A program made the position numbers and the translations under genes. A stretch of DNA of 64,000 nt from Escherichia coli (GTDB lineage: Bacteria; Pseudomonadota; Gammaproteobacteria; Enterobacterales; Enterobacteriaceae). The stretch lies in NCBI RefSeq assembly GCF_013122565.1, contig NZ_CP053258.1; one strand, written 5' to 3'. The notes under the pieces were generated by a model. The model ran no database searches, was not told where the DNA came from, and worked only from the letters and a program-made list of their open reading frames with translations. Shown here piece by piece: positions 12,529-12,626 of the stretch. Every line of letters begins with the position of its first letter. Positions within the stretch are counted from its first letter, which is position 1.

Positions 12529-12626
12529 GGTATGCCGGATCCGGTATTTGATACACGATGCCTGATGCGATGCTGGCGCATCTTATCAGGCCTACGGGGT
12601 ATGTAGGGTACGCCGCATCCGGCAAT
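12529..12626. repeat. REP (repetitive extragenic palindromic) cluster between convergent aer and yqjI
   Basis: Imperfect palindromes of REP type: gcctgatgcgatgctggcgcatcttatcaggcctac plus flanking gccggatccgg and gccgcatccggca units. Confidence 0.75.

Follow-up and report, generated by a model that had tools for sequence, protein, structure and literature searches.

REP/BIME clusters are the commonest repeats in Escherichia coli. The REPs of classes Y and Z2 (Stern 1984; Gilson/Bachellier; Ton-Hoang 2012, PMC3333891) are imperfect palindromes with a GTAG foot (CTAC in the inverted form) and a mismatch bubble in the stem, found at extragenic sites and in multiple copies, and we took the definitions of REP and BIME-2 from Ton-Hoang 2012 (PMC3333891). 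The REP-associated transposase TnpA-REP (RAYT) requires GTAG and a mismatched hairpin for binding and cleaves at CC|T at the inverted unit (PMC3333891). The best-studied BIME-2 array is REP325 of K-12 (yjdM-yjdN), the source of naRNA4 (RF02564), in which Y and Z2 units alternate in opposite orientation over six near-identical 100-nt periods, joined by a head-to-head linker of 11 nt (ACGGTGCCGAC) and a tail-to-tail linker of 17 nt. Doublets of inverted REPs that are mobilised by RAYT/TnpA-REP are known as REPINs (Bertels and Rainey 2011). As to function, a preprint describes REPs as context-dependent partial Rho-dependent terminators plus stabilisers, finds a REP/BIME cluster in about 30% of convergent gene pairs, and reports higher expression for convergent pairs that share a REP (Harris 2026).

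Here we characterize the spacer between two convergent genes, aer and nfeR, in a window of 64 kb (the whole stretch of E. coli DNA that was analysed). The aerotaxis receptor gene aer occupies positions 11006-12526 on the + strand and ends with the stop codon TAA at 12524-12526. The gene for the PadR-type repressor NfeR, yqjI (nfeR), occupies 12633-13256 on the - strand, with its stop codon at 12635-12633. Both coding regions come from the list of open reading frames, and RefSeq annotates them in the same convergent arrangement in strains K-12 and A30; the spacer of A30 is identical to that of the window. The 106 nt between the stop codons (12527-12632) hold, in this order, a Y remnant (12531-12546), a linker (12547-12558), an intact Z2 unit (12559-12595), a second linker (12596-12602), and a second Y remnant (12603-12624). 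The three REP units and two linkers together take up 94 of the 106 bases (12531-12624), leaving unique edges of 4 nt on the aer side and 8 nt on the yqjI side. Judged from its sequence, the spacer is a partly eroded REP cluster with one intact hairpin and a broken unit on each side. Such a cluster is an already known kind of element, and K-12 has one here too, presumably the one named REP228/229. We consider it quite probable that the aer/nfeR spacer is, taken as a whole, an ordinary and partly decayed REP cluster of the BIME-2 kind lying in the common 3' UTR of the two genes, with a history of deletions and a hairpin that would work in both directions.

Canonical Y and Z2 units were read directly from REP325, giving GTAGGCCGGATAAGGCGTTTACGCCGCATCCGGCA as the Y reference and TGCCTGATGCGACGCTTGCGCGTCTTATCAGGCCTAC as the Z2 reference (inverted form). 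We performed local alignment of the spacer to these reference units and assessed significance against 500 shuffles. The Z2-type unit at 12559-12595, TGCCTGATGCGATGCTGGCGCATCTTATCAGGCCTAC (37 nt), lies on the - strand, with the + strand carrying the inverted form that ends in CTAC (12592-12595, GTAG on the - strand). It is identical to the Z2 of REP325 at 34 of 37 positions, with a local score of 59 against a shuffle maximum of 21, and it shows two differences from a 36-nt Z2 consensus, a match that did not occur in shuffles of the 64-kb window. The same unit was recovered as inverted repeat I1 in the repeat scan. Folding gives a 13-bp stem (-20.0 kcal/mol for the + strand, -20.5 kcal/mol for the - strand) with an internal bubble on both strands: C12568 alone is unpaired in the + strand fold, and A12583 and T12584 face C12568 and G12567 in the - strand fold. 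Across a small sample of 7 sequences, 98.9% of the pair cells of this stem were paired and 2 pairs were compensatory. The unit sits between two stop codons, its stem beginning 33 nt away from the stop of aer and 41 nt from that of yqjI, and megablast showed extra places elsewhere in most genomes (median 1 and up to 5 places per genome with the window locus as query; median 2 and up to 9 with the K-12 allele). With the GTAG foot, the mismatched stem, the extragenic site and the multiple copies all found, we assign 12559-12595 to class Z2 of the E. coli REPs, or palindromic units, on the strength of these sequence features.

The sequences that TnpA-REP requires (PMC3333891) were also found at this unit, as TGCC|TGAT at 12559-12566 and GGCC|TACG at 12589-12596. 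The Z2 on the - strand is the sole unit of the cluster that fits the in vitro binding requirements of TnpA-REP and is a putative substrate; a gene for the REP-associated transposase was absent from the 64-kb window.

The two flanking fragments are both pieces of class Y, so that one of the three units of the cluster is intact. The left fragment, TATGCCGGATCCGGTA (12531-12546, + strand), is a mini-palindrome that starts 4 nt past the aer stop and matches the Y 3' half at 13 of 16 positions (by eye, against the REP325 Y). In the naRNA4 alignment it reads TGCCGGA|TCCGG, which is the Y hairpin without its inner 18 nt; unlike a class Y REP, it has lost its interior and its GTAG (here GTAT), and its hairpin is weak (-6.2 kcal/mol on the + strand, -2.7 kcal/mol on the - strand). 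In the right fragment (12603-12624, + strand), which ends 8 nt before the yqjI stop, GTAGG (12603-12607) and a G precede TACGCCGCATCCGGCA (12609-12624); this last part agrees with positions 20-35 of Y throughout (16 of 16), scoring 32 where the best shuffle reached 20. Compared with related species, which have the full Y, the fragment is without 13 nt of the 5' arm (CCGGATAAGGCGT), and it forms no REP-type hairpin, whereas the intact Y of those species folds at -21 kcal/mol. Neither fragment keeps the complete palindrome of class Y, and we therefore describe both as remnants and not as units.

Between the left Y remnant and Z2 lies the head-to-head linker TTTGATACACGA (12547-12558, + strand), which has the position of the linker in the naRNA4 model and a length close to that in REP325, with a sequence that differs among alleles. 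The tail-to-tail linker between Z2 and the right Y remnant, GGGGTAT (12596-12602, + strand), is 7 nt long here, in Escherichia albertii and in SCPM-O-B-8794, and 16 nt long in K-12. The order of the units, their opposite orientation and the 7-nt linker are thus those of a BIME-2 pair in which the Y partner has been shortened, and the complete pair is present in related species. The cluster resembles REP325 in the alternation of Y and Z2 in opposite orientation, a head-to-head linker of about 12 nt, a short tail-to-tail linker, a repeat period (78 nt), and a copy number that varies among strains, with alleles differing by one period (106 versus 28 nt, 153 versus 47 nt). Unlike REP325, it comprises 1.5 degenerate periods, and its tail-to-tail linker is 7 nt rather than 17 nt long. 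Because both Y units have lost an arm or the interior, the cluster is, as read from its units, best called a partial or atypical BIME-2, not a canonical one.

These results bear out the original prediction, with some qualifications. It had placed at 12529-12626 a REP cluster that takes up the whole interval from stop codon to stop codon and holds at least one full palindrome besides two partial units; the full palindrome is the Z2 unit, the partial units are the two Y-derived fragments, and the gap is filled to the extent given above. Its bounds lie inside the gap, although the end at 12626 overshoots the last REP-derived base by 2 nt. The description as BIME-like is borne out for order and orientation, but not for the canonical form. 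Poor agreement with the REP consensus had been named as grounds for giving up the prediction, and such disagreement was not seen, since the alignment to the REP classes gave one Z2 and two Y-derived fragments in BIME-2 order.

The only REP-derived model in Rfam is naRNA4 (RF02564), a covariance model of one Y-linker-Z2 period of REP325 with a gathering threshold of 59.5 bits. It aligned to 12533-12592 (the Y remnant, linker and Z2) with 41.2 bits on the + strand (E = 4.7e-6) and 22.9 bits on the - strand, both below this threshold, and the Rfam scan at gathering threshold found nothing at the aer-nfeR spacer. A role as nucleoid-associated RNA is unlikely, given this sub-threshold match and a compaction role that is itself disputed (Harris 2026). 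As for other known RNA families at the spacer, a match to GRIK4 at E = 1 was discarded as noise. The REP tail motif CTTATCMGGCCTAC occurred 3 times in the 64-kb window against 0.39 expected.

We folded the whole spacer and obtained z-scores of -3.35 on the + strand and -4.75 on the - strand, with 0 of 200 shuffles folding as well. The predicted fold is nested with Z2 innermost, and around it 12533-12544 pairs with 12613-12624 at 11 of 12 positions, across 68 nt. The two remnants are complementary because they are derived from the same palindrome. As a selected structure we rejected this long-range helix as unsupported, since the changes in its arms in AGR6137 and EC31 are non-compensatory: 9 of 12 pairs remain in these alleles, where the window has 11. 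In the minimum-free-energy folds the outermost helix is formed by inverted repeat I3, in which CTGCATTAATC (12518-12528) pairs with GATTAATCCAG (12631-12641) over 11 nt with 91% complementarity, spanning both stop codons. The gene ends that make up I3 read CTG CAT TAA TC in aer and CTG GAT TAA TC in yqjI (- strand). As both genes end in xAT-TAA, this outer inverted repeat is probably incidental.

The closeness of the cluster to both stop codons raises the possibility of a brake on translation termination, in which structure beginning within 15 nt of a stop would stall the ribosome and lower the output of aer and/or nfeR. REPs less than 16 nt from a stop codon are reported to down-regulate translation (Liang et al. 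2015, as summarised in PMC12306157). Here one remnant starts 4 nt after the end of aer and the other lies 8 nt from the stop of yqjI; the two pair with each other in the predicted folds and are enclosed by a predicted outer helix that takes in both stops. Yet the units next to the stops are the broken ones, whose local hairpins are weak (-6.2 kcal/mol or less), the intact Z2 stem stands 33 and 41 nt away, and the long-range helix, which other alleles do not conserve, would require some 100 nt of RNA further downstream. We regard such a brake as improbable.

The spacer had also been predicted to vary among strains, and it does, as is usual for REP clusters. We searched 5,426 complete E. coli genomes for the locus by megablast and found it in all but a few. 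The 153-nt allele of K-12 and O157 was matched in one piece in 3641 of 5426 genomes (67%) with the K-12 allele as query. We sampled 60 rows evenly down the ranking of this query: 40 had the 153-nt allele, 16 an allele of 95-106 nt (about 27%), 2 the 28-nt allele (about 3%), and 1 the 47-nt form, and 1 was without a match to the locus; a 40-row sample from the window-locus query gave much the same proportions. The values of about 27% and 3% are estimates from these spread samples, and sequences were read for examples of each form. The E. coli alleles thus read are of 28, 47, 95, 103-106 and 153 nt, the window having 106 nt. The 28-nt allele has no intact REP and keeps a GC palindrome that folds, with its flanks, at -19.1 and -17.7 kcal/mol.

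Relatives were found with a degenerate-codon pattern for the NfeR C-terminus, taking one genome per species, which gave three Escherichia genomes. In E. albertii and SCPM-O-B-8794 the spacer is 119 nt long and consists of the left remnant, Z2, the 7-nt linker and a complete Y. This 119-nt form is, like a REPIN, a tail-to-tail inverted REP doublet; the doublet of the window, unlike REPINs, is no longer symmetric. In E. albertii NBRC 107761 (L011, ~2410-2560), about 85 nt of the 3' end of aer adjoin the REP spacer and are followed by unrelated AT-rich DNA, and it appears that aer was deleted or truncated in non-motile E. albertii with the REP doublet retained.

The third relative, Escherichia sp. 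E1V33, carries the 153-nt form. Compared with the orthologous 153-nt spacer of K-12 MG1655, the window has the same left remnant and the same Z2, apart from one substitution in the CTAC foot. The K-12 spacer, unlike that of the window, continues with a 16-nt linker, a complete 38-nt unit, and an extra linker and unit head that abut the nfeR stop; the window is without 25 + 22 nt of the K-12 spacer and carries the canonical Y 3' half instead. In the 153-nt allele of K-12, O157 and E1V33, the complete unit (2434-2471 in the K-12 sequence L001) combines, over 38 nt, outer arms of Y type (CCGGAT/ATCCGG) with an interior resembling Z2, GCGACGCTTGACGCGC, which suggests an exchange between unit classes. 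As this unit is a Y/Z2 chimera, the 153-nt allele would be a replacement and not a simple expansion.

Direct repeats within the cluster point to how the shorter alleles may have arisen. Direct repeats around a hairpin are the classical substrate of slipped-strand deletion. In the window, repeat family D2 comprises a left copy, GGTATGCCGGATCCGG (12529-12544, + strand, 16 nt), and a right copy, GGTACGCCGCATCCGG (12607-12622, + strand), which lie 78 nt apart with 88% identity. Taking 13 nt of the Y 5' arm away from the 119-nt form gives the window allele, the 28-nt alleles equal the window allele minus exactly one 78-nt repeat period, and the 47-nt allele equals the K-12 form minus the 106 nt between the unit heads TGCCTGATGCG and TGGCGGATGCG. 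Read in this way, each short allele matches a deletion that runs from one REP-fragment direct repeat to its partner on the other side of a palindrome. We propose that a doublet of Z2 and full Y, 119 nt long, lost 13 nt of the Y 5' arm to give the 103-106-nt allele; that this loss would have made GGTACGCCGCATCCGG a 16-nt direct repeat of GGTATGCCGGATCCGG on the other side of the Z2 palindrome; and that slipped-strand deletion between these repeats would then have given the 28-nt allele, apparently at least twice. The 28-nt alleles are found on two left-hand haplotypes, which match two sublineages of the 103-106-nt allele (ECONIH2 versus MLI109), and because the flanking haplotypes differ, they probably arose more than once. 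The 28-nt and 47-nt alleles agree with known cases of replication slippage between short repeats on either side of a palindrome in being shorter by exactly one period (78 and 106 nt) and in the stable hairpin between the repeats; the mechanism here differs in being read from the end products, with transposase-mediated excision as an alternative. We infer the direction of change from two outgroup genomes, the third (E1V33) carrying the 153-nt allele, and from the few alleles read. The opposite possibility, a fresh insertion of the 78-nt segment with target duplication, was judged less likely than deletion because the relatives are longer, the direct repeat exists solely after the 13-nt loss, and the 28-nt allele is present on two haplotypes.

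This history of erosion also bears on whether the cluster does anything for its neighbours. It could be a decaying selfish element, that is, the eroding remnant of a non-autonomous REP doublet once copied by RAYT, without measurable consequence for aer or nfeR. Each of the two Y units is broken, the cluster has apparently been lost repeatedly, as the 28-nt allele on its two haplotypes indicates, the pairing of the remnants shows no compensatory change in AGR6137 and EC31, K-12 Term-seq has no 3' end at the locus (see below), and REPs have no general effect on mRNA half-life (Harris 2026). Against this, each allele above 47 nt, that of E. albertii among them, has retained an intact Z2 hairpin, with compensatory changes; every allele keeps some structured element, down to the GC palindrome of the 28-nt allele; and the spacer has no other terminator or 3' structure for either gene. 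We regard an element without host function as a serious alternative, though less likely than not.

The transcription data available for the locus all concern the 153-nt K-12 allele and not the allele of the window. Term-seq of K-12 under three growth conditions (Adams 2021) gave no stable RNA 3' end in or near the spacer (3217100-3217899). One Rho region of the same study lies antisense to yqjI at 3217114(-), with a Rho score of 3.36 and p = 3e-5 (about 12921 in the window); another lies antisense to aer at 3217970(+), with a Rho score of 3.80 and p = 3.6e-7 (about 12112 in the window). The scores are computed over 800-nt windows and place these sites roughly. As both Rho regions lie inside the opposite gene, both transcripts would cross the REP cluster, at this 800-nt resolution. 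On both strands, the RNA downstream of the spacer reaches C/G ratios of 1.5-1.6 in some but not all 100-nt windows. A further Rho region reported for K-12, at 3216101 (+), is antisense to yqjH/nfeF with a score of 2.86 (Adams 2021) and would fall at about 13930 of the window on the - strand, inside yqjH.

We scanned 12527-12632 on both strands for a hairpin followed by a U/T run and found no intrinsic terminator. Two sites were found by the terminator scan, both inside the yqjI coding region; the candidate terminator-like hairpin GCGGTCGATCACCGC, followed by a T-rich run (12663-12695, + strand, aer-sense, from the consensus scan), lies about 137 nt past the aer stop and has no matching 3' end in the K-12 Term-seq tables. 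These results weigh against a bidirectional intrinsic (Rho-independent) terminator common to aer and nfeR. A GC-rich palindrome between convergent genes might suggest one, and 78 REPs lie within published bidirectional terminators (Harris 2026); however, no U/T run follows any hairpin of the spacer on either strand, and in K-12 Rho-dependent readthrough continues past the spacer in both directions. Such a terminator is very improbable here.

Instead, the likeliest role of the cluster is a weak two-way hairpin barrier in the 3' UTRs, or none, and by analogy with other REPs the likeliest functional part is the Z2 hairpin, in both directions. Both transcripts would run through the spacer until Rho ended them, as in K-12, within the opposite gene after a few hundred nucleotides. 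The Z2 hairpin of about -20 kcal/mol would form in the RNA of either strand and would be the sole remaining strong structure able to block 3'-to-5' exonucleases or to pause RNA polymerase. Rho-terminated RNAs are trimmed back to U-less stem-loops, and REPs have been discussed in that role (Dar and Sorek 2018). If the expression of aer or nfeR is affected at all, we expect the effect to be modest and to depend on the allele. The original prediction had added that such clusters can stabilise mRNA, for which the general literature speaks; at this locus the claim finds no echo in K-12 Term-seq, with its lack of a stable 3' end. A protective role thus goes unsupported by those data, although low expression could also be the cause of the missing 3' ends.

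Some genomes (about 3%) carry no intact REP at this spacer, and about 27% tolerate the loss of the Y hairpin, which argues against strong selection. We also considered a stronger version of the barrier, in which the allelic series (28, 47, 95-106, 119 and 153 nt), produced by recurrent contraction and unit replacement, would set the levels of aer and of the nickel/iron regulator NfeR through 0, 1 or 2 hairpins, and in which the paired broken Y units would take over part of the exonuclease-blocking role of the lost Y hairpin; this we hold to be rather unlikely.

DNA gyrase offers a further reading, in which the Y/Z2 pair would be a putative gyrase site that relieves positive supercoils between the convergent genes. 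Gyrase reportedly binds REP/BIME elements, as Yang and Ames (1988) and Espeli and Boccard (1997) are said to have found, and the make-up of the cluster (Z2 plus Y, with a short linker, between convergent genes) is of the BIME-2 type. But in the allele of the window the Y unit has lost an arm, which leaves the two-unit architecture incomplete, and 3% of genomes are without the units altogether. We think a gyrase site unlikely.

Beyond correct annotation, the significance of the locus is small. It may serve as a worked example of REP erosion, from the loss of an arm to direct repeats around a palindrome to the loss of a unit, and its natural alleles with 0, 1 and 2 intact hairpins would suit a test of the terminator/stabiliser model for convergent genes. 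In genome scanning, the spacer should be masked as repeat-derived and should not be taken as a candidate small RNA or terminator.

Other REPs and structured RNAs were seen in the surrounding DNA. A complete Y-type REP, GTAGGCCGGATAAGGCGTTCACGCCGCATCCTGCA (13357-13391), lies inside the divergent yqjI(nfeR)-yqjH(nfeF) promoter region; K-12 shares this unit, with different sequence 3' of it and an intergenic region of 287 nt compared with 276 nt here. REPs between divergent genes are rare (about 1%; Harris 2026). An inverted Y-type REP, TGCCGGGTGCGGCGTAACGCCTGATCCGGCCTAC (15098-15132), is apparently located between the convergent genes mug and rpoD, the identities of both genes being taken by eye from the K-12 neighbourhood. 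It follows closely on a classical hairpin-plus-T terminator (about 15060-15085), and 4 nt separate it from the stop codon of the presumed rpoD. The Rfam scan further identified Sib antitoxin RNAs at 34651-34800 and 35027-35176, an FMN riboswitch at 38642-38790, and a tRNA at 14354-14426 on the - strand, which by its position relative to the K-12 map is ileX.
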